From the NCBI GenBank assembly GCA_963674755.2, contig CAXXVS010000002.1, positions 2,464,001 through 2,528,000 on the forward strand: a DNA stretch of 64,000 nt, given 5' to 3'. Shown here piece after piece: positions 1-51,411 of the stretch (its first letter is position 1; every line of letters begins with the position of its first letter). This DNA is from Desulfobacterales bacterium. GTDB taxonomy: Bacteria; Desulfobacterota; Desulfobacteria; Desulfobacterales; UBA5852. The translations under genes and the position numbers were made by a program. The notes beneath the pieces are model-generated. The model worked only from the letters and a program-made list of their open reading frames with translations. It was not told the origin of the DNA and searched no databases.

Positions 1-543
1 TCCGTGGGCGACCTGGGCGACACCATGACCACCTACGATTACAACATCATTCGCGAAGAACTGGGCACCGACGTGGAAATGACCACTTTCATCAACGAAG
101 ACGCCACCGTGACCCTGGAATTCGAGGCCGAGATCACGAGCCCTATCCTCAACTACAGCACCATCCCGGTGGTCAACCAGCAAACCGGCGAGACCATCGA
201 ATTCCCCCTGGATGCCACAACCAAGAGCGAGCTCAAATCGATCCTGTCGGCCAAATCAGGGCAGTCCATCGCCATCGGCGGCATCATCAAGGAAACCCTC
301 GATCTCCTGGAAAACAAGGTGCCCGTGCTGGGGGATATCCCCGGTCTGGGCTTCTTCTTCCGGGAAATCAACAATGCCAAAAAGAAAACTGAAACCGTCA
401 TTATCCTGACCCCCCATGTGATCATGCACCCGGCCCTGGCCGGGCATGCCACGGAAGAATTCCTGCGGCGTAAGAGCTCCCATGAGCAGATCACCAGGGG
501 CATGGAAAATATTCTGGAAAGGGATCTGCCTGTCAAACCATGA
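1..543 (+). CDS. Secretin (GspD/PilQ family), C-terminal part; 5' end lies outside the window
   Basis: C-terminal secretin signature IAIGGII...KVPVLGDIPGLGFFFR...TETVIILTPHVI; adjacent to PilT/GspE/GspF genes. Confidence 0.9.
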   Translation, partial: SVGDLGDTMTTYDYNIIREELGTDVEMTTFINEDATVTLEFEAEITSPILNYSTIPVVNQQTGETIEFPLDATTKSELKSILSAKSGQSIAIGGIIKETLDLLENKVPVLGDIPGLGFFFREINNAKKKTETVIILTPHVIMHPALAGHATEEFLRRKSSHEQITRGMENILERDLPVKP

Positions 544-1691
544 GCCTGTGTGCCCCCATCCCCATGGCCGAGGCCCGGCCCTGCGACATGGACGCGTTGT
601 TCCGGGAAACCCTGCGCCGCGGTGCTTCGGACCTGCACCTTACGGCCCACATGCCGCCCGTCTTCCGCGTGAAAGGCGACCTGCGGGCCATGGCCTGCAA
701 TGCTTATGCCCCGGAGGAAATCGAAAGCCTGCTCAGGCCCATTCTGAGCCCCCGGCACCGGCAGGTGCTGGAGAAGAAAAAGTCCGTGGACTTCGCCATC
801 AGCGTCAATACCGTGGGCCGCTTCCGGATCGCGGCCTTCTACCAGCGCGGGGCCTTGAGCGTGGCCGCGCGCCTGCTGCACGCCGGCATCCCCACTTTCG
901 AAAGCCTGGGCCTGCCCGGGAGCATCGCCCGGCTCACACGGCTGCGCGACGGCCTGATCCTGGTGACCGGCGTCACCGGCTCGGGCAAATCCACTACGTT
1001 GGCCACCGTGCTGGACGACATCAACAACACGGCTCGGCACAACATCATCACCATCGAGGATCCCATCGAGTACATCCACCAGAACAATCGCAGCGTGATC
1101 CACCAGCGGGAGCTCTTCACGGACGTGCTCTCCTTTGCCGACGCCCTGCGCGACGCTTTGCGGGCCGATCCGGACGTGATCCTGGTGGGGGAAATGCGCG
1201 ACCTGGAAACCATGCGGACCGCCATCATGGCCGCCGAAACCGGCCACCTGGTTTTCTCCACCCTCCACTCCCGGGACTGCATCTCCACCATCAACCGCAT
1301 GGTGGGGGCCTTTCCGGCCGGGGAGCAGGCCCAGATCCGCCAGCAGCTCTCCTCGACCTTGAAGGCCGTGGTCTCCCAGCGCCTGTTGCCCAACGCGGCC
1401 GGCACGGGCCGGGTGCCGGCCGTGGAAATCATGCTCACCACGCCAGGCATTGCCAACCTGATCCGCCAGGGCAAAGACGATATGATCTATTCGGCCGTCG
1501 AGACCGGCATCCAGCAAGGCATGCAGACCATGGAGCAGAGTCTGATCAAGCTGATCCGCGAGGGGCTGATCGGTATGGACACGGGCCTGGCCGCGGCCCG
1601 CAACGAATCCCTGCTGCGCCAGCGCCTGTCGGTGCACCGCACAGGCCAGAGCCTGGCGCCGATAAGCGATTATCCGCGGAACCGGAGGTAG
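540..1691 (+). CDS. pilT: PilT/PilU-family retraction ATPase
   Basis: ASDLHL; Walker A GVTGSGKST; TIEDPIE; LRADPDVILVGEMRD; ETGHLVFSTLH; GIANLIRQ (AIRNLIRE-like); GMQTMEQSL. Confidence 0.9.
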   Translation: MSLCAPIPMAEARPCDMDALFRETLRRGASDLHLTAHMPPVFRVKGDLRAMACNAYAPEEIESLLRPILSPRHRQVLEKKKSVDFAISVNTVGRFRIAAFYQRGALSVAARLLHAGIPTFESLGLPGSIARLTRLRDGLILVTGVTGSGKSTTLATVLDDINNTARHNIITIEDPIEYIHQNNRSVIHQRELFTDVLSFADALRDALRADPDVILVGEMRDLETMRTAIMAAETGHLVFSTLHSRDCISTINRMVGAFPAGEQAQIRQQLSSTLKAVVSQRLLPNAAGTGRVPAVEIMLTTPGIANLIRQGKDDMIYSAVETGIQQGMQTMEQSLIKLIREGLIGMDTGLAAARNESLLRQRLSVHRTGQSLAPISDYPRNRR

Positions 1692-1697
1692 GACACC

Positions 1698-3344
1698 ATG
1701 GTACGCATGGAACGTTTCGGGGAATTCCTGGTGAAAAAGGGCGCCGTGCGCCGGGTGGACCTGACCCGCCTGCTGGCGGCCCAACGCCTGGTGCGGGAGA
1801 AAATCGGCACCATCGCCGTACGCGAAGGTCTGCTGACCGAGGACGAGCTGACCGCCTACCTGGGCGAATATCTGGGCATGCCGCTGTTCAAAGCCACCGT
1901 CGACACCATCGAAAAGGGCATTATCCGCGTCATTCCCAAGAAAATGGCCCTCAAGGCCAATGTGTTGCCCGTGGGGACGGGTGAGGGCGGCGCGCTTTTG
2001 CTGGCTTGCAGTGGCCCGCTGTCCAAAACCATGCTCCAGACGATTTCCCGGCTCAGCAAACAGCCGGTGCGCCTGGTGCTGACCTCCCCGCGCAAACTGC
2101 ACAAGATGCAGAATCTCTTCTACAGCCGGGAGTTCGACACCGCCATCAACCTGACCGGCGCGGTGGACCTGGAGGACACGGGCTTCATCATCGAGCTTTT
2201 CGAGAAGCTCATGCTGCGGGCCGTCAATCAGGGGGCCTCGGACATGCACGTGGAACCGGAGCGTGACGTTCTGGCGATCCGCTTCCGGGTGGACGGGATG
2301 CTGGTCAGGACCGAGGCCCTGCCCAGCGATCTGGCCGGCCGGTTGGTGTCCCGCATCAAAGTGCTGGCCGGGATGGATATCGCCGAACGCCGCAAGCCCC
2401 AGGACGGCGCCTTCTACTTCCTGCCCCAGGCCCTGGACGTGGCCATCGACGGGGTCAACGTGCGGGTCAGCACCCTGCCGGTGGTGAACGGCGAAAAAGC
2501 CGTCCTGCGGCTGCTCCCGCCCCATGACGAGGTCATCGAGCTGGACGGCCTGGGCATGGACGCGGCCCTGCTGGCACGTTTCAAGCGTTTGCTGCGCACC
2601 CCCCACGGGATTCTGCTGGTGACCGGCCCCACCGGGTCGGGCAAATCCACCACCCTGTATGGCGCCCTGCAAATGCTGCGGGCCGAGACCACCAACATCA
2701 CCACCATCGAAGACCCGGTGGAACTGACCGTGCGGGGAGTCAACCAGACCCAGGTGGACTCGGGGGAGCGGCTCTCCTTTGCCAATGCCTTGCGGGCAAT
2801 CCTGCGCCAGGACCCGGATGTCATCATGGTGGGGGAGATCCGCGACCCGGAGACCCTGCGGATTGCCCTGCGGGCGGCCATCACGGGCCACCTGGTACTC
2901 TCGACCCTGCACACCAACGACGCCCCCAGCGCCTTCAACCGCATGATGGACATGGGGGCCGAACCCTTCCTGGTGGCAGCCTCGGTGCGGGCCGTGTTGG
3001 CCCAGCGCCTGGTGCGCACGGTCTGCCCGGCCTGCGGCCGGGCCGTGCCCATCGGCGTCGCCGAACAGCGCATGCTGGGCCTCGATAGTATGCCCTTTCA
3101 GATCCGCCGCGGGCCGGGGTGTGACAACTGCCAGATGGGTTTCCGAGGGCGGCTGGGCATTTTCGAATTGCTGGAAGTGGACGAAAAGCTGAAGCCCCAT
3201 ATCCTGGAGGCCGCCGACTTTGAAACCCTGCGGCAGGCTGCGATCACACACCAGGCTTTCCGCACCCTGCGGGAGGACGGCATCGCCAAGGTGCGGCAGG
3301 GCCTGACCACACCCGAGGAAATCATACGGGTGACCATCGACTGA
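1698..3344 (+). CDS. GspE/PilB-family secretion/pilus assembly ATPase
   Basis: ASDMHVEP, RFRVDG, DIAERRKPQDG, GPTGSGKSTT, LRQDPDVIMVGEIRD, CxxC...CxxC Zn site, GRLGIFELL. Confidence 0.93.
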   Translation: MVRMERFGEFLVKKGAVRRVDLTRLLAAQRLVREKIGTIAVREGLLTEDELTAYLGEYLGMPLFKATVDTIEKGIIRVIPKKMALKANVLPVGTGEGGALLLACSGPLSKTMLQTISRLSKQPVRLVLTSPRKLHKMQNLFYSREFDTAINLTGAVDLEDTGFIIELFEKLMLRAVNQGASDMHVEPERDVLAIRFRVDGMLVRTEALPSDLAGRLVSRIKVLAGMDIAERRKPQDGAFYFLPQALDVAIDGVNVRVSTLPVVNGEKAVLRLLPPHDEVIELDGLGMDAALLARFKRLLRTPHGILLVTGPTGSGKSTTLYGALQMLRAETTNITTIEDPVELTVRGVNQTQVDSGERLSFANALRAILRQDPDVIMVGEIRDPETLRIALRAAITGHLVLSTLHTNDAPSAFNRMMDMGAEPFLVAASVRAVLAQRLVRTVCPACGRAVPIGVAEQRMLGLDSMPFQIRRGPGCDNCQMGFRGRLGIFELLEVDEKLKPHILEAADFETLRQAAITHQAFRTLREDGIAKVRQGLTTPEEIIRVTID

Positions 3345-3400
3345 CATCGCCTGTTAGCAAGGCGGCCTGACGACGGCCGTAAGGAGTATAGCGATAGGGT

Positions 3401-4612
3401 ATGCCACATTTCAGGTACAGCGCGATCGATTCCGGGGGTAAACGCATCCGCGGGCGCCTGACGGCCGACGATGTCAATGCGGCCGCCGAACGCTTGCGGG
3501 CCCAGGGCCTGACCATCACGGAGATCAGCGAAACCACGGAACGCGCTGCGGCCGGCCTTGGCGGGGGGCTGACGGCGGTCCTGGGGGTGGTGCGGACCAA
3601 GGACGTGGTGCTGTTTTTCCGGATGTTTTCGGCCCTGATCGCCTCTAACGTGACCATTTCCGAGGCCATGGAAATCCTGCACGAACAGGCCGAGAACCGC
3701 CAACTCAAGCGCGTGCTGAATGATATCCGTCTGAAAATCGAGGGGGGCGAGCCCTTGAGCGACGCCATGGCCGGTCATCCGCGGGTTTTTCCACGGGTGG
3801 CCACCAACATGATCCGGGCCGGGGAGCTGGGCGGCATCCTCGACACAGTCCTGGAGCGCATTTCGGATTACCTCGAAAGCAAGGCGTCCCTGCGGACCAA
3901 GATGATCGTCAGTATGATCTACCCCACGGTAGTGGTGGTGGTGGCCACCGTGGTGGTGGTTTTCCTGGTGACCTATGTGATCCCCAAGTTCGCCTCGCTG
4001 CTGGGGGGCCGGAAGCTCCCGGCCAATACCCAGTTCCTGCTGGATACAGCCGCTTTCCTGACCGGCAACGCCCGGGCCATTCTGATTGCCAGCGCGGGGT
4101 CAGGGCTGGTCCTGGGGGTGCTGTTCGCCCTGCCGGCCAGCCGGATCTATATAGACCGCTATAAGATCCGCATTCCGGTGATCGGCCCGATTTTCCGCAA
4201 CGGGGTCATCGTGCAGTTTTCCAAAACCCTGGCGTCCCTTCTGGAAAGCGGCATTACCCTGGTGGATGCCCTGCGGGCCACGGCCGATACGGTCACCAAC
4301 GAGGCCGTGCGCCAGCAAATCCGCCGGATGAACGACCGGGTGCTGGCCGGCGACCCTCTGTCCCACGCCTTGGCCGGCGACCGGTTCTTCACGCCCATGG
4401 TGAAGGCCATGGTGCGAATCGGCGAGCATTCGGGGCTGATGGACCAGGCCATGGCCACCGTGGGCCAGCTCCACGAAAAAATCCTGCAGGACAAAATCGC
4501 GCGCATGAGCGCCATGATCGAACCGGTCCTGATCATCGTTTTGGGGGGTATCGTGGGCTACGTGGCCTGGGGCCTGGTGGCCGGCATGCTGGCATTGTAT
4601 TCGGCGGCATAA
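3401..4612 (+). CDS. GspF/PilC-family inner-membrane platform protein
   Basis: Two T2SSF repeats (GELGGILD..L; GEHSGLMD), MIYP..V, IEP..II.LG; 403 aa. Confidence 0.92.
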   Translation: MPHFRYSAIDSGGKRIRGRLTADDVNAAAERLRAQGLTITEISETTERAAAGLGGGLTAVLGVVRTKDVVLFFRMFSALIASNVTISEAMEILHEQAENRQLKRVLNDIRLKIEGGEPLSDAMAGHPRVFPRVATNMIRAGELGGILDTVLERISDYLESKASLRTKMIVSMIYPTVVVVVATVVVVFLVTYVIPKFASLLGGRKLPANTQFLLDTAAFLTGNARAILIASAGSGLVLGVLFALPASRIYIDRYKIRIPVIGPIFRNGVIVQFSKTLASLLESGITLVDALRATADTVTNEAVRQQIRRMNDRVLAGDPLSHALAGDRFFTPMVKAMVRIGEHSGLMDQAMATVGQLHEKILQDKIARMSAMIEPVLIIVLGGIVGYVAWGLVAGMLALYSAA

Positions 4613-4697
4613 TAGAAGAGGGTCCCGTATAGCGAACAGGCGGACGGCCTTCCCGATGGGGGGCCTGCCGACAGGTATCGCAAAGGAGACGAACAGA

Positions 4698-4928
4698 ATG
4701 AAACACAAGTTGATTCTTCATTCATTATATCTCAGCATGATCATCATGAATATCGGGATTGCCCTGGCCTTCGGCATCTTGCCAACCTTTGTGATGGCGT
4801 TGCTGACCATGATCCACTGGATGGCCACTTCTTTAAAAGAAGAAGAAGTATTGTTGCAGAAATTTCCCGATGCCGATCGCCAATATAAAAAAAAGGCGCC
4901 ATGGCGACTGCCTCCGGGGGATTTTTGA
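4698..4928 (+). pseudogene. C-terminal fragment of an isoprenylcysteine carboxyl methyltransferase-like (Ste14/PEMT) membrane protein
   Basis: HSLYLS (degenerate RHPxY), EEEVLLQKFP..Y.KKAPWRL.P resemble the family C-terminus; N-terminal helices absent. Confidence 0.5.
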
Positions 4929-4989
4929 CGGGCATAAGAAGCATATGGCCTTTATGGCCGATCACCGTATCCAAATTGCAGAGAAGACG

Positions 4990-5796
4990 ATGAACCAGAA
5001 ATTAAGCGGCATTCCGGAAACGATGCTCATTCCTTTATGGGCGCGAGCCGTGGAGACGGTGCGGGAGAAACCGATTATCCGGGATGACATGGCGGTGGAA
5101 ATGGTCTCCCGGATCGACTACGACTTTGCCAAATTTAAAAAATCCTGGTTGTCGCAAGTTGGGGTGTCGATCCGAACGATGCTGATAGACAATGCCGTGC
5201 ACGACTTTGTAACCCGCCATCCCGGTGCGCAGATAGTCAACCTCGGCGCCGGACTGGATACGCGCTGTGAGCGGTTGAAAGAGGAAGCGATTGTCTCCTG
5301 GCACGATCTGGACGTACCGCATGCGATTGAATTGAGGCGTAAATTCTTTGCGGAAAGCGAAAGGAACCGGTTCATTGCCAAGTCGGTTTTCGACCTGTCC
5401 TGGATGGACGATATGGATGCCGCCGGTCAAAAGACGTTGATCATCGCCGAAGGCCTGCTCATGTATTTCACCGAGGAAGACATCCGGGTTCTTTTCAAGC
5501 AACTGGCCGCGCGATTCCCGGGAGCTGAGATGCTCTTCGAGATGCTGGCCCCTTTTCTGGTGGGCAAGAGCAAGCATCATGATGCCGTAAGCAAAATCGG
5601 CAGCCGCGCTGAATTCAAGTGGGGCCTCAAAGACAGCCGGGAGATCGAGACCTGGGACGTGCATATCCGATTTATGGAAGAATGGGATTATTTTGATTTC
5701 CACAAGGAGCGCTGGAAGTGGTTCGGCTACCTGGGACGTTTCCCGCTAATCAGACCCCTGCTCTCCAACCGGATCGTTCATTTGTGCTTTATGTAA
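4990..5796 (+). CDS. Class I SAM-dependent methyltransferase (leucine carboxyl methyltransferase/TcmP-like)
   Basis: ETMLIPLWARA, VNLGAGLDTR, DLDVP..IELR, IAEGLLMYF. Confidence 0.88.
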   Translation: MNQKLSGIPETMLIPLWARAVETVREKPIIRDDMAVEMVSRIDYDFAKFKKSWLSQVGVSIRTMLIDNAVHDFVTRHPGAQIVNLGAGLDTRCERLKEEAIVSWHDLDVPHAIELRRKFFAESERNRFIAKSVFDLSWMDDMDAAGQKTLIIAEGLLMYFTEEDIRVLFKQLAARFPGAEMLFEMLAPFLVGKSKHHDAVSKIGSRAEFKWGLKDSREIETWDVHIRFMEEWDYFDFHKERWKWFGYLGRFPLIRPLLSNRIVHLCFM

Positions 5797-5822
5797 CCCT
5801 GAACTCTTTTGGGAAGAGATTT

Positions 5823-6704
5823 ATGAAACTTCACGCATTAAAGATCCTTTTGACCCTTTTCTGCCTGACGCTGGGTGTGTCGGGCTGCCACCAGGCGGAA
5901 TCCGGTGACAATGTGGTAGTACGTTTTGAGGGCGGCCGGCTGACCGCGGAAGACCTTTCGGCTCATTACGATAAGATGAAAAAAGGCACCCGCTTCCGCC
6001 GGAACCAGGAGCAGCTCACCCCGGAATTCGCTTTCGAGCACGCTGTCAACATGGAGATGATCATTGCCAAGGGGCTCGAGGAAAAACTTCACCTCGATCC
6101 CCGCATCCGGGCCGAGATCCACGCCTTCATGGCCGACCTGTTTCTCAAAGTCATGCAGGAAAAGCTCGTACCCCAAATCGACAAGCAGGACTTCAGCGAG
6201 GAGGAGGTGCGCGCCTATTTCGACGCCCATCCGGAAAGCTATCAAACCCCCGCGCACTACGATGTGCGGATCATCCGGGCGGCCGACCGGGCCAAGTTGG
6301 AAAATATTCGGGTGGAAATCGCGAAGGGAGCGATCACCTTCAAGGCGGCGGCCCGGGCGCATTCCACCGATGGCCGCACCCGCGACAAGGGCGGTGCCGT
6401 GGGGCCGCGCCCTCTTGAACGGTTCCGGTCCGACTGGCGCGCGGTCATTGCCGAGCTGGAACCGGGATCGCTGTCGGCGCCCACCGCCATCGGAGACGAC
6501 TGGTTTCTGTTCGAACTGGCCGGCCGAACCGCCCCGGTACCCCATGATTTCGAAGAAAAGAAAGCCTATGTGCGCAATGACCTCTTGTATGCACGCTACC
6601 GCGAATCCTGGCAGGCGACCTACGAGCGGCTCAAGAAAGAGTTCGCTCTCAAGGTGGACGCGGCCCGACGGGATCGCTTTCTGAAAGGAGAAAAGCCCTC
6701 ATGA
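5823..6704 (+). CDS. PpiC/parvulin-type peptidyl-prolyl isomerase, probable lipoprotein
   Basis: Lipobox-like VSGC; F..AARAHSTD..T.DKGGAVG rotamase motif; SAP.AIGD.WFLF. Confidence 0.8.
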   Translation: MKLHALKILLTLFCLTLGVSGCHQAESGDNVVVRFEGGRLTAEDLSAHYDKMKKGTRFRRNQEQLTPEFAFEHAVNMEMIIAKGLEEKLHLDPRIRAEIHAFMADLFLKVMQEKLVPQIDKQDFSEEEVRAYFDAHPESYQTPAHYDVRIIRAADRAKLENIRVEIAKGAITFKAAARAHSTDGRTRDKGGAVGPRPLERFRSDWRAVIAELEPGSLSAPTAIGDDWFLFELAGRTAPVPHDFEEKKAYVRNDLLYARYRESWQATYERLKKEFALKVDAARRDRFLKGEKPS

Positions 6705-7237
6705 AACCCCAGCCTGTAAGTCGTCCGGCGGTCATTTTTCTGCTGGCAGCCATCCTGCTGCTCGACAGTGCGGTTGCCGCCCGGGCTCACAGCACCAAGG
6801 GGCGCATCAAGATCCCGCTGGAAAAGACGGATATCGGCGTGGATGACGTGGCCTATTTCGTCGAGTCCTATGTTCACCGGGAACTCTACAAGCATCGCTT
6901 TGTCCAGAGCAAACGGCGCTTCTATGTCAAGGAGTTTCTCCGGGTGGACCACGATGGTCCCCGGGCGGACATCCACTTCATCGTTCTGGACGTTAAGGAG
7001 AAGACCACCTTTCCCGATGTCATGACGATCCGCCGCGGATCGGACGGCATCTGGCACTATCGGACGAAGAATACGACCGCCCCTTTGGAAGTTTACACCT
7101 ACGTCATGAAATGGGGCTATTACTACCAGCGCTACGTGCTGCCGATCAGCGCCGCCGGCGTCGGGCTGGCGATTTTTTTCCTGGCCATGCTGCGCCTGCA
7201 CAAACGCAAGAAAGGAGCCTCCCGATGCGACGCCTGA
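6701..7237 (+). CDS. Exported hypothetical protein with C-terminal membrane anchor
   Basis: Signal peptide ending ARA|H; C-terminal hydrophobic helix followed by KRKK; ATGA overlap with upstream gene. Confidence 0.7.
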   Translation: MKPQPVSRPAVIFLLAAILLLDSAVAARAHSTKGRIKIPLEKTDIGVDDVAYFVESYVHRELYKHRFVQSKRRFYVKEFLRVDHDGPRADIHFIVLDVKEKTTFPDVMTIRRGSDGIWHYRTKNTTAPLEVYTYVMKWGYYYQRYVLPISAAGVGLAIFFLAMLRLHKRKKGASRCDA

Positions 7238-7533
7238 CATGGATCCTCGGAGCGATTCTTTTGATGGGAACGCCGGCCCCGGCCTTGGCTCACACGGCCA
7301 TCATCGACTGCATGGAAGCCGATGGTGAGTGCCAATGCCAAGGTTTCTTTTCGGACATGTCGCCAGCCACCGGAGCCCGGGTGACCGTTATAGACGATAC
7401 CGGCCAGATAATTCGACAGGGGGAAATCGACGTACACGGCGAATTCTCCTTTCCGCTACCGAATACCCATTACCGGGTCTACATGCATGCTGGTCCGGGT
7501 CACAACGCCGAACCCTGCGACCCGACCGAATGA
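7225..7533 (+). CDS. Small exported protein (CbiL/NikL-like beta-sandwich), paralogue of 11601-11927
   Basis: RBS AAGGAG; signal peptide ALA|H; C..GFFSD.SPATGARV...GEFSF..P...YRV...AG.GH. Confidence 0.7.
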   Translation: MRRLTWILGAILLMGTPAPALAHTAIIDCMEADGECQCQGFFSDMSPATGARVTVIDDTGQIIRQGEIDVHGEFSFPLPNTHYRVYMHAGPGHNAEPCDPTE

Positions 7534-7569
7534 GACATGCTCTCAATTACTTGATGGAAAGCACCCCGA

Positions 7570-7950
7570 ATGGTTGAAATCATCCGACGACTGATCGTGG
7601 CGGGCCTGGCCATCGGGGTCATTGCCGGCAACGCCGACGAGATCACCCGCTTCTACGACGAAACCGTGGCCCACGCCCGGCATCTGGCCACGGCGGCCGA
7701 TCTGCGCAGCATCAGCAACATGCTGGACTATGCCTTCATGAAGCGGGGACGCTACCCGCGTCCCGTGCAATTCGCTGATTGGCTGGCGCGAACCTTCAAG
7801 GAAAACCCCATGCAGGACCTGGGCCGCGATCATTGGGGACAATGGCTGGTCTATGAGACCGATGCGGCCCAACGCCGATTTACCCTGACCAGCATGGGTC
7901 CGGACGGAATGGCCGGCACCGCCGACGACCTGCGCGTCAGCGGCCCCTGA
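7570..7950 (+). CDS. GspG-like pseudopilin-domain protein
   Basis: GRYP, DHWGQWLVY, FTLTSMGPDGMAGTADDL match the GspG C-terminal pattern. Confidence 0.72.
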   Translation: MVEIIRRLIVAGLAIGVIAGNADEITRFYDETVAHARHLATAADLRSISNMLDYAFMKRGRYPRPVQFADWLARTFKENPMQDLGRDHWGQWLVYETDAAQRRFTLTSMGPDGMAGTADDLRVSGP

Positions 7951-7964
7951 AAGGAGAAAACACC

Positions 7965-8471
7965 ATGACATCGACAACGATTCGCGCCCTGGATAAGACG
8001 ACCCATACCCGACGCAAGCGCTTCCAGCGCCGCAACTACTTCATCAACAAACCTTTTCAGCTGGCCTTCGCCGGCAACATGCTTCTGATCGCCGCCTTGG
8101 GAATGCTGGTCACGGCCCTGACGGTGAGCTGGATTTTCATCTATATCTTGGACGACCAATTGTGCACCGTCTTACTGCACCCGGGTTATCTTCTTAAATT
8201 GGGCATCATACTGGTTTGCCTGGCGGCGGGAATCCTGACCTGGACGGTGCTGCGAACCCATGCCATTGCGGGTCCCGTCTATAAGACCCGCCAGGTGCTC
8301 CGAGCCGCGGCCGAAGGGCGCTTCCCGGACCGGCCGGTGACTTTCCGTAAAAGCGATGCCTTCAAGGATCTGGCCGGCGATCTCAACCGCTGCCTGGATG
8401 CCATGCGCGCCGACCGGAAACGGCTGCGGGGTCTGGAAACATTGTCGCAAAACGACCCCGAAATGCCTTAA
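7965..8471 (+). CDS. Two-TM membrane protein with HAMP-like C-terminus
   Basis: RRNYFINKPFQ N-terminus, two hydrophobic helices, THAIAGPVY...FRKSDAFKDLA..LN; RBS AAGGAG. Confidence 0.7.
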   Translation: MTSTTIRALDKTTHTRRKRFQRRNYFINKPFQLAFAGNMLLIAALGMLVTALTVSWIFIYILDDQLCTVLLHPGYLLKLGIILVCLAAGILTWTVLRTHAIAGPVYKTRQVLRAAAEGRFPDRPVTFRKSDAFKDLAGDLNRCLDAMRADRKRLRGLETLSQNDPEMP

Positions 8472-8654: not shown

Positions 8655-8713
8655 TTGACAACACGACACCCCTATTGTTATTAGCAATTCCTCAAGTCGT
8701 TAGGGTTATCTAA
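8655..8713 (+). promoter_or_regulatory. Sigma70 promoter with two DtxR/IdeR-like operators upstream of feoA
   Basis: TTGACA 8655-8660; TG-n-TATTAG at 8676-8684; TTAG-N6-CT(C/A)A boxes at 8681-8694 and 8700-8713. Confidence 0.6.
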
Positions 8714-8719
8714 TTTCTA

Positions 8720-8860
8720 TCGACTTGCCTTACGGTCTTCGGCCGGTCGCAGGCGCGAAGAAAGTGAAGGCGCAACACGCGGTTCGGCATCCATGTGACG
8801 CATCCCCGGGGATGATGTCACTGATGGATGACTGCCAACCAAGCGGTTGCGCCTTTTTTT
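8720..8860 (+). promoter_or_regulatory. Conserved 5' leader (copy 1) with intrinsic terminator; candidate riboswitch/attenuator
   Basis: Shares TCGAC, CCTTACG, AAGTGAAGGCGCAA and TGCGCC-T(n) with 15322-15415; AAGGCGCAA/TTGCGCCTT stem followed by a T7 tract. Confidence 0.65.
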
Positions 8861-8892: not shown

Positions 8893-9123
8893 ATGACCTT
8901 GGACGAATTGAAGCCCGGCAGCGAGTGCCGGATCAAACGCTTGTCGGTGCGGGACAAATTGGGCCAGCGACTGATGGATATGGGGGTTTACCCCGGCCTG
9001 CGGCTGAAGGTGGTGCGCAATGCCCCCCTCAAAGATCCCATGGAGGTCGAACTGGACGGCTATTTCGTGAGCCTGCGCCATGATGAGGCCCGCTTCGTGG
9101 AGGTCGAACACTGTGAGCGCTGA
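8893..9123 (+). CDS. feoA: Ferrous iron transport protein A
   Basis: QRLMDMGVYPG...RNAPLKDPMEV...SLRHDEA; RBS AAGGAG. Confidence 0.95.
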   Translation: MTLDELKPGSECRIKRLSVRDKLGQRLMDMGVYPGLRLKVVRNAPLKDPMEVELDGYFVSLRHDEARFVEVEHCER

Positions 9124-11581
9124 CAAGGTTCTTGTAGCCCTGGCCGGCCAGCCCAACTGCGGCAAATCGACGGTATTCAACGCCCTCACCGGCGCCCGCC
9201 AGCATGTGGCCAACTATCCCGGCGTCACCGTCGACAAGATGACCGGCTGGTACAAACACAACGGTCTGCGGGTTGAAGTGGTGGATCTGCCCGGCACCTA
9301 CAGCCTGACCTCTTATTCCCCCGAGGAGCGGGTCTCCCGGGACTTTATTCTCCACGATCAGCCCTCCGTGACGGTGAACGTGATGGACGCCGCCAATCTC
9401 AAGCGTTGCCTCTATCTGACCTTTCAACTGCTGGAGATGGAGACCCCGCTGGTCCTCAATCTCAACATGATGGATACCGCCGCCAAGCGCGGCATGGCCA
9501 TTAATGTTCAAAAGCTTTCCGAGCGCCTGGGTATCCCGGTCGTGCCCACAACCATGAAAAACGGGCAGGGCAAAAGGGACCTTTTGGAAACCATTGCGAC
9601 CCTGGCCGGCGGCGGGCGGACCAAGCCGGCAGCACGCATCGATTACGGAGAGCTGGAGCCCTGCCTGCGGGAAGTGGAAACGCGGCTGGCCGATACCGGC
9701 GCGCTTTTGGAAACCCAGGCCCGGCGCTGGACGGCCATCAAACTCATGGAGGGCGATAGCGAGATTCAGCGGCTACTCCGGCAGAACAATCCTGAAGCCG
9801 AAACCTTGCTGGCCGCCGTTGAAACCCTGCGGGAGGATTTCGAAAAACGCCACGGGGTGGCCTCCGAGGTCGCCATTGCCGACCGCCGCTATCGCATGGC
9901 GGACGATATCGCACGTTCCGCCCTGACAATGGCCGGCGGTGCCAAACGCCCCCTTTCGGATAAAATCGACGCCCTGGTCTGCCATCGCTTTCTGGGACCG
10001 GCCATCATGGTGGGGATCATCTGGCTGCTCTACTACCTGTCCATTGTTCAGGGCTACAACATCACCAACTATACCTGGCCGCTGCTGGCCAAACTACGCA
10101 GTCTGACCGAAGCAGTGATGCCGGCCCCGGGATTCATCGAAATTCCGCTGATCCGCGCCCTATCCCTCTGGATGGTGGACAGCGTCAATGCGCTGCTGAA
10201 TTACATTCCTATTTTCTTTATTCTTTTCGGTCTGATCGCCATTTTGGAGGACAGCGGGTATATGCCGCGCATGGCCTTCATCATGGACAAGCTGTTCAGC
10301 CGTTTCGGCCTGCACGGCCAGTCCACCCTGCCCATGGTGCTAGGAGGCATCTACGTCGGCGGCTGCGCCGTGCCGGGGGTCATGTCCTGCAAAGGCATTC
10401 CGGACGAACGCTCGCGTCTGGCCACCATCCTGATCATCCCCATGCTCAACTGCCTGGCCAAGGTGCCGCTCTACGTGCTGCTGATCAATATCTACTTTGC
10501 GGCCCACAAGGCCTGGGCCATGTTTTTCATTTCCACCATCAGCCTGCTGCTGGTGCTGCCGGTATCCAAAATACTGACCCTGACCGTTCTCAAGGACAAA
10601 GAGACGGCCCCCTTTGTCATGGAGATGCCGCCCTATCACCTGCCCACCCTGCGGGGCGTACTGGGCCGGGCCCTGGAGCGGGTCTGGCTGTTCATGCGCA
10701 AGATCACCACCATTGTTGTCGCGGTGGCGGTGGTGGTTTTCGTGCTGCTCCAGTTCCCGGGAATCGACGAGAAGCGCATGACGCACTACAAGACCCGCCA
10801 GGAAAAGGCGGCGGCCGCGTTTTTTAAAAAAATAGGAAAGACGTCCTATGTCGATAAACTCCGGGGCGACAACCTGATGGCATTGATCATCTACGGGGAC
10901 GACTACAAGGCCGCCCGCATGGGGGCCAAAAGCGAGGCCGCCCTGGCCGAACTGAACGCCGCCTTTGAAGCGCGCAATCCGGATTATTTTGCGGTCGTGC
11001 GGCGCGACGGCAAGGACGGCAAAACCGTGAACCGGGCGCTTAAAAATCTCGTGCGAACCCGCAAAGGGCTGCTGCTCGATATGCGCAAGGAACGCATCGA
11101 CAAAAGCTTTCTGGGCACCATGGGGCGCTGGCTGGAGCCGGTGACCCGCTGGGCCGGCTTCAACTGGCGGGTGAATGTGGCCCTGCTGAGCGCCCTGGCC
11201 GCCAAGGAAAGCAGCGTGGCCACCCTGGGCGCCCTGTATGAGCCGCAAGAAGAGGGCGAAGCCCTGGAAGAACGCATGGCCCGGGGCGAGGAAGGCTTCA
11301 CCCCCCTGCACGCCCTGGCCCTGATGCTTTTCATGGTGCTCTACCCGCCCTGCCTGGCCACCGCCATTGCGGTCAAATTGCAGGCGGGCTCGGTCAAATG
11401 GATGCTGTTTTCCATCGCTTATCCCATGGCGCTGGGGCTGGCTGTGGCGACCCTCGTCTTTTCCCTGGGCCGGGCCCTGGATTTTAGCGGACTTCAGGCC
11501 ATGTTCGCCTTTTACGGCCTGGCCCTGGCGTTTACCCTATTCATGGGCCTTATCAAAAACCAACCGGAATACGCATCATAA
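9113..11581 (+). CDS. feoB: Ferrous iron transporter B
   Basis: GQPNCGKST, VANYPGVTVD, DLPGTYSL, NMMD G motifs; EDSGYMPRMAF; FVMEMPPY; AKE; LYPPC; GTG start overlapping feoA. Confidence 0.96.
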   Translation: MSADKVLVALAGQPNCGKSTVFNALTGARQHVANYPGVTVDKMTGWYKHNGLRVEVVDLPGTYSLTSYSPEERVSRDFILHDQPSVTVNVMDAANLKRCLYLTFQLLEMETPLVLNLNMMDTAAKRGMAINVQKLSERLGIPVVPTTMKNGQGKRDLLETIATLAGGGRTKPAARIDYGELEPCLREVETRLADTGALLETQARRWTAIKLMEGDSEIQRLLRQNNPEAETLLAAVETLREDFEKRHGVASEVAIADRRYRMADDIARSALTMAGGAKRPLSDKIDALVCHRFLGPAIMVGIIWLLYYLSIVQGYNITNYTWPLLAKLRSLTEAVMPAPGFIEIPLIRALSLWMVDSVNALLNYIPIFFILFGLIAILEDSGYMPRMAFIMDKLFSRFGLHGQSTLPMVLGGIYVGGCAVPGVMSCKGIPDERSRLATILIIPMLNCLAKVPLYVLLINIYFAAHKAWAMFFISTISLLLVLPVSKILTLTVLKDKETAPFVMEMPPYHLPTLRGVLGRALERVWLFMRKITTIVVAVAVVVFVLLQFPGIDEKRMTHYKTRQEKAAAAFFKKIGKTSYVDKLRGDNLMALIIYGDDYKAARMGAKSEAALAELNAAFEARNPDYFAVVRRDGKDGKTVNRALKNLVRTRKGLLLDMRKERIDKSFLGTMGRWLEPVTRWAGFNWRVNVALLSALAAKESSVATLGALYEPQEEGEALEERMARGEEGFTPLHALALMLFMVLYPPCLATAIAVKLQAGSVKWMLFSIAYPMALGLAVATLVFSLGRALDFSGLQAMFAFYGLALAFTLFMGLIKNQPEYAS

Positions 11582-15258: not shown

Positions 15259-15315
15259 TTGACAGGCAAGGAATTCCCATTGTACGGTATTTCTAAATGA
15301 ATTAGGTAATTCTAT
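15259..15315 (+). promoter_or_regulatory. Sigma70 promoter with two DtxR/IdeR-like operators upstream of the flavodoxin operon
   Basis: TTGACA 15259-15264; TACGGT -10 candidate at 15283; boxes TACGGTATTTCTAA (15283) and TTAGGTAATTCTAT (15302), 19 bp apart as at feoA. Confidence 0.58.
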
Positions 15316-15321
15316 TTTATT

Positions 15322-15415
15322 TCGACATACCTTACGTCCGGCGACCGTCTGGTGGTGCGCAGGGAAGTGAAGGCGCAAGCGATTTCGCAACTCGCGAAAT
15401 CCCTGCGCCTTTTTT
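15322..15415 (+). promoter_or_regulatory. Conserved 5' leader (copy 2) with intrinsic terminator; candidate riboswitch/attenuator
   Basis: Same conserved blocks as 8720-8860; AAGGCGCA/TGCGCCTT stem with inner GATTTCGC/GCGAAATC stem and a T6 tract. Confidence 0.65.
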
Positions 15416-15539: not shown

Positions 15540-15926
15540 ATGGCGAAAATCGGCAAGCGCACCAAAAGCGATTGGAAAATCGGCGCCCATCCGGTCAACT
15601 CCTACAAAGCCAGGGTCCCCGATCCGGCCGTCCAGCGCAAACGCCGCACCAGCAAAGAAATTCGGCGGGTGATTGCCCGGGCCCTGAACCGGGTGCGGGA
15701 CGACGGCCGCACAGTTCTTTTGACCGCCGAAAGTTACCGGGGCCGGCCCAAACCCAAAACCATGTACCGTGTCGAACTGTTTAAACACAACTACTATGTT
15801 CTGTGCGCGCAGCAGCAGGTCATCACGCTCTTTACATCGGACATGGTGGCCGGTGACAGCCGCAAGGGTCATTTGGTTTTTCGTGACCAGGAGCCCTTCG
15901 AAGAACTTTCATCCTATTATTCATAA
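15540..15926 (+). CDS. Hypothetical basic cytoplasmic protein
   Basis: RBS AAGGA; 128 aa; first gene after leader copy 2; K/R-rich. Confidence 0.65.
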   Translation: MAKIGKRTKSDWKIGAHPVNSYKARVPDPAVQRKRRTSKEIRRVIARALNRVRDDGRTVLLTAESYRGRPKPKTMYRVELFKHNYYVLCAQQQVITLFTSDMVAGDSRKGHLVFRDQEPFEELSSYYS

Positions 15927-15980
15927 CGCCCGGGGCGACGGGAATTTCACGCCCTTCCCACCCCCACAGGGAGGTTTTCT

Positions 15981-16391
15981 TTGCATCAGGACTTTCATAT
16001 CGATTATCGCCACAGTGCGGGCAATCTGCATATCCAGCTTTCCGGCACGTTCAACCTCATGTGCGCCTGGGCGCTTTACAAAACCATCAAACAACAGAAC
16101 GCTGGCTCGGGTCGCATCTTTGTCAATACCAAGGGACTTACGAAGGTTATCACCGGCGATGCGGAGCGGTTCAAAGGATACATGGTACAGGGAAGAATGC
16201 CCCCGGACTGGCTTTATTTTAAAGGCGAGAAAGGATTGGCTATCGCACCGAACGGGAGCCGGGTACTCATTTGCAAAACACCAGACCGCAGAAGGCGTGA
16301 GCCCTTCCCGACCCTGAAACCATGCGGTTCAAAACCGCATCGCTTTTTATTACCCGATCACAAAAGGAGAAAAAGATGGGCAAAGCATTGA
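15981..16391 (+). CDS. Hypothetical protein, STAS-like
   Basis: RBS GGAGG, TTG start; NLHIQLSGTFN..CAW.L, RIFVNT.GL, LYFKGEKG..IAPNGSRVL. Confidence 0.65.
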   Translation: MHQDFHIDYRHSAGNLHIQLSGTFNLMCAWALYKTIKQQNAGSGRIFVNTKGLTKVITGDAERFKGYMVQGRMPPDWLYFKGEKGLAIAPNGSRVLICKTPDRRRREPFPTLKPCGSKPHRFLLPDHKRRKRWAKH

Positions 16392-16825
16392 TTCTTTTCG
16401 GTTCCACCACCGGCAATACCGAGGATATGGCCGGCACGGTTCAAAAAGCACTGGAAGACGCCGGACTGCAAACCGTGTTGAAAAATGTCATGGAGGCTAC
16501 CGTAAACGATTTGGCCGCCGACAACGACCTGATTGTTTTGGGATGTCCCGCCTATGGTGATGACAGTATCGAGTTGCAGGAAGATTTCGAAGAATTCTAC
16601 GAACAAATGGACAGTGTCCAACTGAACGGCAAGCCCTTTGCCGTTTTTGCGCCTGGTGACAGCTCCTATGAATACTTCTGCGGTTCGGTCGACAAGCTCG
16701 AAGAAAAAATGACCGAACTCGGGGGCAAACTGGTGCAGGACGGACTGAAAATCGACGGCGACCCGGCCGACTACCAGGACGAAATCGTCGGTTGGGCCCA
16801 ATCCGTCGCCGGGGAGTTTGCGTAA
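16376..16825 (+). CDS. fld: Short-chain flavodoxin
   Basis: FGSTTGNTE FMN loop, LGCPAYGDDSIELQEDF, GDSSYEYFCGSVD, LKIDGDP. Confidence 0.95.
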   Translation: MGKALILFGSTTGNTEDMAGTVQKALEDAGLQTVLKNVMEATVNDLAADNDLIVLGCPAYGDDSIELQEDFEEFYEQMDSVQLNGKPFAVFAPGDSSYEYFCGSVDKLEEKMTELGGKLVQDGLKIDGDPADYQDEIVGWAQSVAGEFA

Positions 16826-16981
16826 CCCTCCGGATCGGCTCCGATTGCCATGGACCATAGCGGTCATCCATCCATGGCTTGCGGCCGACCCCCACGACCC
16901 GCCAGAGGCCGGCCATCCTCTCTCCCTGGAGGGATGCCGGCTTTGGCGGTGGTTATCTGCGGATAGTGGAACAAGGGGAGC

Positions 16982-17377
16982 ATGTCACCGCAGCAGCGAC
17001 AAACATATTGTACGGCCAAATATTTAAGGATGATCCTGCGGCTGGAGCGCCAGGAGGGATGCATACGTGTCAAAAACCTCGCCCGCGAGCTGGGGTTGCG
17101 CAAGGGATCGGTCAGCGGGGCTTTGAAAACCCTAAGGGAGAGGGGACTGGTCGATTACCGCCCCTACCAACCGATCCGACTGACAGAGGCGGGGCGGGAA
17201 ATGGCGGAAAAAATTGCCGGACATCATTGCATCATCGCCTGTTTTCTCAGGAAAACCCTTAGGATGTCCCCCAAGACCGCAGAAATGTCCGCTGCCCGCA
17301 TGGGATCGGTTGTGGATGAGGCGGTGGTTGCGCGTATGCGGCACTATCTGGAACGCTCTCCCACCGAAGTTTTTTAG
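16982..17377 (+). CDS. DtxR/MntR-family transcriptional regulator with degenerate metal ligands
   Basis: YL..I..L, RVKNLARELG..KGSVSGALK.L...GLVDY.PY..IRLTE.G. Confidence 0.82.
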   Translation: MSPQQRQTYCTAKYLRMILRLERQEGCIRVKNLARELGLRKGSVSGALKTLRERGLVDYRPYQPIRLTEAGREMAEKIAGHHCIIACFLRKTLRMSPKTAEMSAARMGSVVDEAVVARMRHYLERSPTEVF

Positions 17378-17476
17378 TAATCGCCAAACTGGCCTTAATA
17401 GGACAAAGGGGATAACACACCCAAACGACACGACAACCCTGTCTTTTGTGCCCTCGCTGGGCCTCCCGAAAGGAAA

Positions 17477-18346
17477 ATGACCATGTTTCCTCACCAGAAC
17501 TACCGGCGTTTCTTTTGCACCCTGGCCGCTTTTGTCCTTTTGGCCTTCATGCTTCCCACAGCGTCTGTGGCCCACTCCCTGTACATTCAGTCCGGCCGCC
17601 ACCAGGTGTCGGAAGGCAAAGCCTCGCCGCTTTTCTTCTGCTACGGCCACCACTTTCCGGTGGACGACGCCATCCGCCGCCAAAAGCTCGCCTATGTCCG
17701 GGTGATCGCGCCGGACGGGGTTGCCAACGAGGTTGCCCTGCGGGACGATCGGTCCCTGCACTCCTATCCCATCACCTATGAGATCCCCGGCACCTACGTC
17801 CTGACTGCCGAAACCCGTCCGGGTTATTTTGCCATGTACATCGACAATAAAGGGCGCAAGCGTCATTCCCTGAAACCGATGGACACCTTTGCCGACAAGG
17901 CCCAAGAGATCCTGTCAAGCATGCGCAGCAGCCAGTGGGCTAAAAGCTACGTCTTGTGCGGGGCATCCCCCAAGCCCTTTCCGGCCCGAGTGGGGCTCCC
18001 CCTGGAGCTCGTACCGACCCGCGACCTGTCCCAACTTAAAAAAGGCGACCGAATTGAGCTGCAGGTGTACAACGATGGCCAGCCGTACGACGGAAAGGGC
18101 TTCTGGGACGCTACCTATACGGGTTTTTCCACCGAAGCCGAGGATCTCTATATCCAGAAGACGCCCTGCGATGCCGGTCAATTCAGCGTACCCATCGATG
18201 TCAGCGGCCGCTGGTTTATCCGTTTTTACACCAAAACCCCCGCCCCCGAGGAACGCCAAAAAGAATACCTGACTGAAAAGCGCACCGCCACCCTGGTTTT
18301 CGAAGTCCGCAATGAACGCCGCAGGCCTGCGCTCGATTCGCATTGA
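17477..18346 (+). CDS. DUF4198-family periplasmic protein
   Basis: Signal peptide SVA|HSLYI, YGHHFP, PGTYVL, GLPLELVP, GRWFIR. Confidence 0.75.
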   Translation: MTMFPHQNYRRFFCTLAAFVLLAFMLPTASVAHSLYIQSGRHQVSEGKASPLFFCYGHHFPVDDAIRRQKLAYVRVIAPDGVANEVALRDDRSLHSYPITYEIPGTYVLTAETRPGYFAMYIDNKGRKRHSLKPMDTFADKAQEILSSMRSSQWAKSYVLCGASPKPFPARVGLPLELVPTRDLSQLKKGDRIELQVYNDGQPYDGKGFWDATYTGFSTEAEDLYIQKTPCDAGQFSVPIDVSGRWFIRFYTKTPAPEERQKEYLTEKRTATLVFEVRNERRRPALDSH

Positions 18347-18510
18347 CACCCATTGGTCGCCAATCGCGCCGGGTCGCATTGACCGTTACCGATGGCATTG
18401 GTATAAACAGATATTGATGCTACCAGTGGTTCGACGGGAATGTGATGGCGCGCAAACACGTATCGTTCATATTGCATTGAGTAAAACGCTGCCGGGCCGC
18501 GGGGCTAATC

Positions 18511-19086
18511 ATGCTGGCGGCCCTGTTGCTGCCCCTGCCGGCCCCGGAAGCCCATCCCCATGTATTTATCGTGCAGCGTCTGACACTTGTATTCGACGCT
18601 GAAGGACTGGGCGGAATCAAGGTCTGGTGGAAATTCGACGACATGTTCGCCAGCATGATTGCCGAGGATCATGATACGAACCGGGACGGTCGTCTGGAAG
18701 CCGAAGAGGTGCAGTCGGTAAAGGAGAATGCTTTTGCCTTCATCAAAACTTACAACTACTTCACCTTTATCCGGATCGACGGCCGACCTTTCGACGTGAA
18801 GTTCGTCAAAGACTTCAACGCCGTTCTTGAAGACAATCGTCTGGTCTACGAATTCTTTATCCCCTGCCATGTGACAGCTATCACTGCTCCCAAAAAGCTG
18901 GCCATCGTCACCTACGATCCCAACTATTACTCGGCCATTTATTTTACCCAGAAGGCCCCGGTTTCCCTGAGCGCCGCTGATGCCTATGAGGTCAAGACCG
19001 AAGTACGTGAAGATCCGGACACGTCGATCTATTATGATATGGTCCACCCCTGGGCGCTCTTCCTGGAATTTCGGAAAAGGGTATGA
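18511..19086 (+). CDS. DUF1007-family exported protein (Ni/Co transport-associated)
   Basis: A|HPHVFI, W.FD.MF, EF-hand-like DTNRDGRLEAEE, YNYFT, YDPNYY; an in-frame TGA at 18478-18480 separates it from an upstream ATG at 18445. Confidence 0.8.
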   Translation: MLAALLLPLPAPEAHPHVFIVQRLTLVFDAEGLGGIKVWWKFDDMFASMIAEDHDTNRDGRLEAEEVQSVKENAFAFIKTYNYFTFIRIDGRPFDVKFVKDFNAVLEDNRLVYEFFIPCHVTAITAPKKLAIVTYDPNYYSAIYFTQKAPVSLSAADAYEVKTEVREDPDTSIYYDMVHPWALFLEFRKRV

Positions 19087-51071: not shown

Positions 51072-51180
51072 GCACCCATCTAGCTTGACCCTTGTTCAAT
51101 CCGACCGGCCGGGCCTTCCGTTGTTCAACCGAAAGTCCTCCACCGATCGCATTGTCAACCGTCTTCCCGCGGTAGTTGTC

Positions 51181-51345
51181 AAGGCAGGTCTTCTGACTCC
51201 CGGGTCGTTCTACTCTCCAGGCCTTCCCGTTCGATGGCAATCGAACAGTGGCACGTGGGCGGATTTCGTCACCGGTTACAGCGGCGGGACCGTTCCCGAT
51301 TTGCACGGGATTCCCTATTAAGCCTTGCGGCACCTTGGGGATAGT
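51181..51345 (-). ncRNA. Cobalamin (AdoCbl) riboswitch
   Basis: Minus strand AGGTGCC...AATAGGGAATCCCGTGCAAATCGGGAACGGTCCCGCCGCTGTAA...GCCACTG...GGGAAGGC...AGTCAGAAGACCTGCC (B12 box). Confidence 0.95.
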
Positions 51346-51411
51346 TTTAGAGGAGACCGGGAGACAATGTCAAGCTCAAATACAGGGATATCGCTTTGGA
51401 TGGCCAACGCC

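Follow-up and report, generated by a model that had tools for sequence, protein, structure and literature searches.

An undescribed helical domain as the probable antiterminator of a bulged leader hairpin ahead of iron-uptake genes in Desulfobacterales

Among response regulators the usual RNA-binding output is ANTAR, and the CAT domain is a beta-sheet dimer. HutP binds RNA repeats with histidine and a metal; its gene comes first and a terminator precedes the structural genes, and GlpP, TRAP and PyrR are also comparable. Few families of antiterminators are known to bind leader RNA, and the accessible part of a 2025 review covers the antiterminator proteins CAT, ANTAR and HutP (PMC12591593). According to the accessible parts of that review and of an earlier source, ANTAR targets overlap the 5′ arm of an intrinsic terminator, with several targets per regulon, and CAT antiterminator genes lie beside their RAT targets (PMC3369931, PMC12591593). 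Metalloriboswitches, in the accessible part of PMC11672702, are mostly ON switches against toxicity.

The element described here is closest in RNA anatomy to the targets of CAT/RAT systems (BglG, SacY, LicT; PF03123), which are single conserved stem-loops partly overlapping the terminator and stabilised by the protein. It likewise forms a RAT-like single hairpin with a 7-nt overlap of the terminator 5′ arm. However, the RNA sequence differs, and the candidate protein partner, a small protein with an FKSK domain, is predicted to be all-helical and has no CAT or PRD match in Pfam or NCBIfam. The input of the FKSK systems would be repression or a phosphorelay, whereas that of CAT/RAT is the PTS. 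Like ANTAR (EutV, AmiR, NasR; PF03861), FKSK is a small helical, putatively RNA-binding output that occurs alone or behind a receiver and a long helix, and its target overlaps a terminator; this is a functional likeness, not homology. The FKSK target is one long bulged hairpin with a variable apical loop, whereas ANTAR reads two hexaloop hairpins with A1/G4. The gene order of HutP recurs at the third copy of the element, and HutP shows no sequence or fold match to the small protein. NiCo/czcD, yybP-ykoY and M-box are also leader RNAs ahead of metal-transport genes, paired with a metalloregulator (PMC11672702, accessible part), but the element has no Rfam match and no four-way junction, its sign would be wrong for uptake, and it has a candidate protein partner.

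Two copies of the element lie in the window, by which we mean the whole 64-kb stretch of DNA analysed. The sequence-only reading had aligned a leader ahead of feoAB with a second one ahead of a flavodoxin operon, and the blocks it aligned are present in both: TCGAC at 8720 and 15322, CCTTACG at 8728 and 15330, AAGTGAAGGCGCAA at 8762 and 15365, and TGCGCC followed by seven and six T, which forms the 3′ ends of the copies at 8860 and 15415. The DtxR-like boxes it noted do begin at 8700 and 15302, in each case 20 nt ahead of TCGAC; no further site of the box pattern occurs within the window. On its own the pairwise similarity of the copies is marginal: 72% over 68 nt, with a blastn E of 0.05-0.07 when searched against the genome. 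The features of the two loci are as follows.

8655..8684, + strand: promoter-like TTGACA and weak −10 with TG, found in the sequence by eye; a consensus scan did not recover it
8681..8713: tandem DtxR-type boxes 19 nt apart (degenerate 8681-8694, good 8700-8713), from the sequence and family-wide peaks
8726..8772, + strand: copy 1 antiterminator hairpin, from fold, covariation and a covariance model match with E 1.7e-16 (the model includes copy 1)
8766..8860, + strand: copy 1 intrinsic terminator, −52.8 kcal/mol, folding z −6.6
8893..11581, + strand: feoA (8893-9123) and feoB (9113-11581), with DUF4198 and FeoB-associated genes behind them (all by Pfam)
15259..15315, + strand: copy 2 promoter-like TTGACA at 15259, also with a weak −10 and absent from the consensus scan, and tandem boxes (degenerate 15283-15296, good 15302-15315), from the sequence
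15330..15373, + strand: copy 2 antiterminator hairpin, from fold and a model match with E 5.4e-8 (the model includes copy 2)
15369..15415, + strand: copy 2 intrinsic terminator, −26.5 kcal/mol, folding z −5.7
15540..19086, + strand: operon behind copy 2 (by Pfam), with ORFs of 128 and 136 aa (no Pfam match), flavodoxin (16379-16825), a DtxR-like gene (16982-17377), DUF4198 and DUF1007

Of the two iron-starvation operons claimed earlier, feoAB indeed lies behind copy 1, but behind copy 2 the flavodoxin gene is only the third in its operon. The DtxR-like gene in that operon is shorter than the one outside the window (131 vs 183 aa) and could be a feedback element. The 128-aa ORF family (window 15540-15926) recurs behind the element in loci L082, L117 and L142, and a 122-136-aa family recurs in L090 and L099. 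The latter has two paralogues in the own genome (window 15981-16391 and L001:16192-16560), STAS-like by eye only, and neither family has a Pfam or NCBIfam match.

The leader, which the sequence-only reading did not recognise as any known riboswitch, has no match in Rfam 15. At gathering score, the only Rfam match in the window is a cobalamin riboswitch at 51166-51352 on the reverse strand (111.8 bits). In E-value mode the sole match of copy 1 was a 21-nt fragment, which lies on the opposite strand and scores 14.9 vs 65.5 bits. A scan of the own genome (G000, 6.7 Mb) found exactly three copies, the third at G000:C2:2450793-2450880, 13 kb before the window and ahead of a DUF2325 gene. A covariance model that includes these three had them as its only own-genome matches below E 0.9 (150 of 2530 candidates scored).

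A two-part sequence pattern searched against one genome per species gave at least 124 stretches. Among the 80 matches listed, most are from Desulfobacterota by title, with Desulfobacteraceae, Desulfosarcina, Desulfatiglans, Desulfarculia, Syntrophaceae and Syntrophobacteraceae represented. Nine listed matches from unrelated taxa are without a terminator and were taken as chance, and two from Acidobacteriota MAGs are true copies. In the collected loci, 142 pattern matches were narrowed to 120 with a terminator-like 3′ end and 119 distinct copies, which we call class I. Desulfosarcina alkanivorans PL12 and D. variabilis Montpellier are among the genomes with class I copies. From the outside inwards, the hairpin consists of a loose lower stem RUGU/GCGY, CUU/AAG, a bulged G, AC/GU, GG opposite AA, a 6-bp stem, a 3′ bulge and a variable apex (consensus CUUAC-GG...AA-GU-G-AAGG). 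Copy 1 shows CUU/AAG, the bulged G8766, AC/GU, the GG/AA loop, then a bulge and the apical stem, with the 6-bp stem at 8736-8741/8756-8761. In copy 2 the second G of the GG/AA loop is missing, and the same CTTACGT variant occurs in G159, G214, G276 and G286. TCGAC, read earlier as part of the shared leader, was found in 2 of 118 copies and does not belong to the family. Nor did the proposed multi-stem interior of terminator 1 hold, as this segment folds into a single long imperfect hairpin. From core to U run it measures 88 nt, compared with 32-49 nt in the other 118 copies (window 8777-8845), and a long hairpin seems to have been inserted in its loop.

The middle of the earlier alignment, CG-n-CCG...GCG-n-AG, is real but turned out to be a covarying stem rather than conserved sequence. 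The six positions of this inner stem, which the search pattern does not fix, are paired in 108, 115, 112, 105, 109 and 104 of the 119 copies, against shuffled means of 65, 91, 98, 86, 98 and 75 (shuffle maxima 80-104). A covariation count gave 190 two-sided changes in 102 of the 119 copies, compared with 53 ± 11 expected; none of 500 shuffles reached this value, and slid controls gave at most 51. The last 7 nt of the hairpin are also the terminator 5′ arm (8766-8772 in copy 1), and the inner terminator pairs covary as well. The fold, the shared strand and the compensatory changes together bear out the mutually exclusive antiterminator pairing put forward in the sequence-only reading. The forced antiterminator costs 4.0, 5.4 and 5.9 kcal/mol in copies 1, 2 and 3 relative to the terminator state; on these energies the default state of the leader would be OFF, with a gap small enough for a binding partner to bridge. 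The folding z of the isolated 5′ hairpin was −2.1 in copy 1 and +0.5 in copy 2.

Since the class I core is fixed by the search pattern in the 119-copy set and in its covariation counts, pairing of the core was tested on loci picked by protein. Six genomes of six families carry CCTACGG...AAGTGAGGG, and the 3′ arm of their terminator has changed accordingly; in this clade the antiterminator U-A became C-G together with a U to C change in the terminator. Three further genomes have TTTACGG...GTGAA[AG] variants, two of them with a paired C-G to U-A change at the next pair. Among 75 model matches in the protein-picked loci, the three core pairs had 2, 5 and 2 two-sided changes in an alignment fitted by the model. 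One nucleotide is thus paired in both helices, with all three strands changing together, and this three-strand change probably represents one or two evolutionary events. Loci L263, L265 and L266 hold a diverged class I form with a longer apex and a downstream hairpin with no U run directly behind it; this variant may act otherwise than by termination. A pattern of the 3′ half alone, searched within the family, matched G008 and G015, where the 5′ half and the terminator are lacking. A loose pattern matched 144 of 301 genomes, but its reversed control also matched often, and it serves as a lead only.

The same data bear on explanations that involve no RNA-bound switch, for which we see very little room. 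A leader-peptide attenuator could be suspected from an ATG before the core in 57 of 118 copies; this ATG is absent in both window copies and in the CCTACGG clade, its frame is not kept, and core lengths of 32-49 nt represent all three frames. The conserved halves form an imperfect inverted repeat and the outputs of response regulators usually bind DNA, as a DNA operator for the FKSK domain would have it, but the G-U pairs, the covarying stems and a spacer whose length differs by 17 nt match an RNA rather than such an operator. A dispersed repeat was rejected because only three copies exist in 6.7 Mb, all of them in leaders and in the sense of the next gene.

First downstream ORFs were picked for 102 class I copies, and 75 of them were scanned. 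Feo proteins made up 27 of the 75 (FeoA 19, FeoB 6, FeoC 2), followed by DUF2325 (6), porin-type (3), TonB receptor, NifB/X-type, DUF3450, Slp and HD (2 each), one flavodoxin, one heavy-metal ATPase, three others and 24 without match. With one mismatch allowed and up to 110 nt searched, a TTAG-N6-CTAA box was found upstream of 58 of 118 class I copies, versus 23.5 ± 4.4 in local shuffles. Its positions peak family-wide at −29/−28 and −48/−47, that is, at tandem sites 19 nt apart, and the window copies agree. The adjacent genes and the DtxR-type consensus suggest that the box belongs to the DtxR family. Separately, the own genome carries a dispersed repeat of ~60 nt that ends in a TTAGATC..CTAA-like site, listed at about nine places including G000:C1:791538 and 804785, C2:269232 and 1418903, and C3:884970.

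Two further genes lie beside the third copy.

G000:C2:2449776-2450327, outside the window: DtxR/MntR-family repressor gene with both DtxR Pfam domains
G000:C2:2450479-2450772: unannotated ORF of the 97-aa FKSK-domain protein, following dtxR and with its own box

Copy 3 sits 24 nt 3′ of the 97-aa ORF, which is single-copy in the own genome. The presence of both a palindromic promoter box and a linked DtxR-family gene would place the leaders in a DtxR/MntR regulon, and the family-wide box excess together with the linked dtxR upholds the earlier proposal of a switch layered on DtxR-type repression. Iron is the presumed metal because the targets are feo, flavodoxin and TonB genes. The best scores of the linked repressor, all below cut-off, are with MntR models, so manganese may instead be the metal sensed.

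The DUF2325 protein behind copy 3 (L001:14944-16179, G000:C2:2450943) combines a Cys-rich N-terminal part, a coiled coil and DUF2325, and its gene is often first behind the small FKSK-protein gene. Between copies 3 and 1 lies a type II secretion or type IV pilus-like cluster with prepilins, GspE/F/G-like proteins and a PPIase (G000:C2:2455321-2472470, including window 1-8471). In G121 and G167 a class I element stands immediately 5′ of a small ORF and the first prepilin gene, so the pilus-like apparatus may belong to the iron-starvation island. RNA and protein are both absent from all six other members of the genus in the order sample, which suggests that the island is patchy and was gained or lost as a block.

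The FKSK family comprises at least 1655 clusters at 90% identity and 1075 representatives at 50%. In 46 aligned members, a near-invariant F-K-S-K turn and L-R lie between two helices (consensus E..VLEE.RK.FKSK.L..LR..L). The 97-aa protein was not named by Pfam, NCBIfam, PDB sequences, ESM Atlas, Foldseek or VIA-align; ESM Atlas returned three clusters labelled hypothetical, and the PDB sequence search gave nothing below E 0.5. Anti-adapt_IraP matched 14 of the 46 members weakly (best E 5e-4). The AlphaFold monomer contains helices only, with low global confidence (pTM 0.42), and its best structural match (Z 7.3) was to generic helical hairpins. Control could also be post-translational instead of being set by abundance, with the FKSK protein itself sensing a metal or Fe-S cluster through N-terminal Cys/His or requiring a partner such as DUF2325. 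We regard this as improbable: Cys and His are not conserved (C27 in 13, C28 in 17, C50 in 21 and H26 in 31 of 46 members) where the FKSK turn is near invariant, and the small gene has DtxR-type boxes and a dtxR neighbour. In its favour, 49 of 70 stand-alone proteins have two or three Cys, a C-x4-CP motif recurs in some of them and in many of the receiver fusions described below, in which the domain is one normally gated by an input domain, and DUF2325 genes often follow the first element.

In the 301 genomes of the order, the protein was found in 54 and the strict RNA pattern in 55; 46 genomes have both, 9 the RNA pattern only, 8 the protein only and 238 neither, with the reversed pattern giving 15 matches in 14 genomes. 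The covariance model finds the RNA in five of the eight protein-only genomes. G243, counted among the 46, has a chance pattern match and a partial gene; the model likewise found nothing in G132, G246 and G243, where the gene is either broken, located at a contig end or incomplete, and G097 reached only E 0.09. Five of the nine RNA-only genomes were checked, and the protein was detected in none of them; two hold no true element, and three do (G040, G071 with nine copies, and G241; 96-100% complete, in 90-520 contigs). In the sample of 401 genomes of the phylum, the strict pattern occurred in 12 and the protein in 23, with 9 in common. Of the 14 protein-only genomes here, two have fusions, and in each of the 12 with a stand-alone gene a variant element follows that gene directly; G313 and G521 have the element and no detectable protein.

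An element lies within 420 nt downstream of 47 of 70 distinct stand-alone genes, compared with one on the reverse strand, none upstream and 0.25 in shuffled sequence. The targets of the other 23, which have no element within the tested distance, may lie elsewhere. A dtxR gene was found within 1.5 kb upstream of 38 of the 70, and a box within 90 nt upstream of 28, versus 10.4 expected. Part of this co-occurrence in the iron branch reflects no more than linkage within one island, and related genomes are not independent.

As linkage within one island could explain the co-occurrence, an independent context was tested in receiver fusions. The FKSK C-terminal hairpin is also the output of response regulators of ~245 aa: a receiver domain is present in 34 of the 36 longer homologues, and hhalign of stand-alone against fusion sequences gave 99% and E 2.5e-18 with 52% identity over 46 columns, the fusion set having been picked with the same profile. 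In 80 metagenomic fusion loci, many of which lie behind apparent histidine-kinase gene ends (by eye), the class I model itself found one element (E 2.9e-6). These loci contain a sister RNA, class II (CCUU-GN-CG ... AG-NN-G-AAGG), with the same bulged G and G-A loop and one extra pair. With a pattern written after the flanks had been seen, class II was found in 35 of the 80 loci when 400 nt downstream were searched, and not in the other 45 (34 of 69 among loci for which 250 nt were available); controls gave 0 upstream, 0 on the reverse strand and 0.01 in shuffled sequence. A terminator-like 3′ end, by a crude pattern, accompanies 40 of 57 class II matches, and 51 copies show 94 two-sided changes compared with 30 ± 8 expected. 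DtxR boxes show no excess at class II (5 of 55 vs 6.3 expected). Downstream genes encode LuxR-type and other regulators, gas-vesicle protein A, integrases, DUF892 and NuoE-like proteins, and no Feo, TonB or flavodoxin was among the 36 of 46 class II downstream ORFs scanned. Rfam had no match for 20 class II loci at gathering score or for eight loci of both classes at E ≤ 1.

A class II model trained on the 51 copies scored below E 1e-5 in 57 of the 80 loci and had no match in the window. In G685, outside the training set, it found four elements (E ≤ 4e-11), each with a terminator, 6-14 kb from the receiver-FKSK gene and none elsewhere in the genome. Genomes with the stand-alone protein only (G000, G228, G053) had no class II element of note by the model, nor did G449, whose receiver-FKSK gene is diverged. 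When a terminator was required, the strict class II pattern gave no match in five genomes, among them G685, where the model finds four. In viral contigs 120 stretches matched the class II pattern; of 80 checked, one reached E 7e-5 and none encode the domain, and they were therefore rejected as chance matches. Class II elements also precede pilin-like genes in G685; in L312, L318 and L325 they follow the receiver-FKSK gene by 86-129 nt and stand ahead of gas vesicle protein A, and other metagenomic copies precede integrase, DUF892 and DUF1328 genes.

A quick tree built from 151 domain sequences (65 columns) places the 74 stand-alone sequences on one side (SH-aLRT 94). Class I follows 55 of these 74 and none of the 77 receiver sequences, whereas class II follows 33 of the 77 and none of the 74. 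Domain and RNA thus stay together across two unrelated regulatory settings and switch class together, as expected of a binder and its target. Comparison with ANTAR by sequence and profile gave no sign of kinship. Hhalign of FKSK against six ANTAR domains from relatives (a shallow template) gave 0.1% and 0.9%; ANTAR was neither among the eight Pfam matches of the own protein nor among the best 25 of 59 families for the 46 members (E ≤ 1), and G000 has no ANTAR match. In Foldseek with the predicted receiver fusion, EutV ranked third and fourth (TMq 0.48-0.54, rmsd 5.5-7.8), probably via its receiver domain, since the other rows are receiver domains.

The sequence-only reading had left open a metal-sensing or a protein-controlled attenuator. 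The evidence favours protein control and names a candidate protein, whereas a metal riboswitch found no support. A hairpin binding Fe2+ or Mn2+ directly, with the small gene as an island passenger, would fit the metal-uptake genes behind class I copies, the invariant bulge and purine loop that could hold an ion, and the three genomes with RNA and no detected protein. Such a riboswitch seems highly unlikely to us, given that the RNA is a single hairpin with no junction and that its sister precedes non-metal genes and accompanies the protein domain into two-component loci. Moreover, as the conserved fold is the antiterminator, any stabiliser would turn the genes ON, so metal binding would turn uptake ON in excess, contrary to DtxR logic. 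For uptake genes under a metal-dependent repressor, the stabiliser would have to be present when the metal is scarce, which a protein fits and the metal does not.

Taken together, the element is probably the RNA target of an undescribed RNA-binding antiterminator domain, FKSK, whose iron branch is a DtxR-repressed feed-forward circuit. From linkage and class matching we infer that the protein binds the RNA and raises read-through. By default, the terminator of a transcribed leader would fold and transcription would stop within the leader. The FKSK protein would bind the invariant bulge and G-A loop directly via its basic turn and hold the shared 7-nt strand, allowing read-through. In Desulfobacterota the stand-alone domain is encoded beside dtxR behind a DtxR-type box, so that the protein should appear only under iron shortage. 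Iron limitation would lift the repressor from the dtxR, small-gene, feoAB and flavodoxin promoters, and accumulated FKSK protein would open all three terminators of the own genome. This would constitute a coherent feed-forward loop with AND logic, in which the repressor frees both the promoters of the targets and the gene for the antiterminator, which in turn releases the terminators; copies inside operons would depend on the FKSK protein alone. In the second branch, receiver phosphorylation would gate the same domain, as described for EutV in the accessible part of PMC3369931.

We further consider it probable that these systems form a third widespread class of bacterial RNA-binding antiterminators, alongside CAT and ANTAR. 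In this view an FKSK hairpin of 45 residues recognises a bulged RNA helix and serves as output of an unrecognised family of two-component response regulators. In sulfate-reducing bacteria it would have lost its link to phosphorylation and come under a DtxR-type repressor, so that a protein mediates antitermination of iron-starvation genes, and class I and class II would be orthogonal pairs one base pair apart. Full-text literature, which leaves most subscription papers outside its scope, held no description of the RNA or the FKSK domain. The accessible part of PMC11109978 gives gcsH as one Desulfobacteraceae motif, so that such a genome was probably screened there, and its supplement may list the RNA; the main text of PMC5737381 mentions no iron, two-component system or response regulator, and its supplement may list the motif as well. 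The kind of mechanism is already known; the protein domain, the RNA and their wiring into iron control and two-component signalling appear to be new.

With a protein of 97 aa and an RNA of 50 nt, the system is small enough for direct tests in vitro or in E. coli. The two RNA classes may also provide orthogonal switches. If it is true, a family of at least 1655 clusters would gain a defined RNA target and an unnamed response-regulator output domain would gain a function. A tier of antitermination would also be added to iron homeostasis in anaerobes that face iron-precipitating sulfide.
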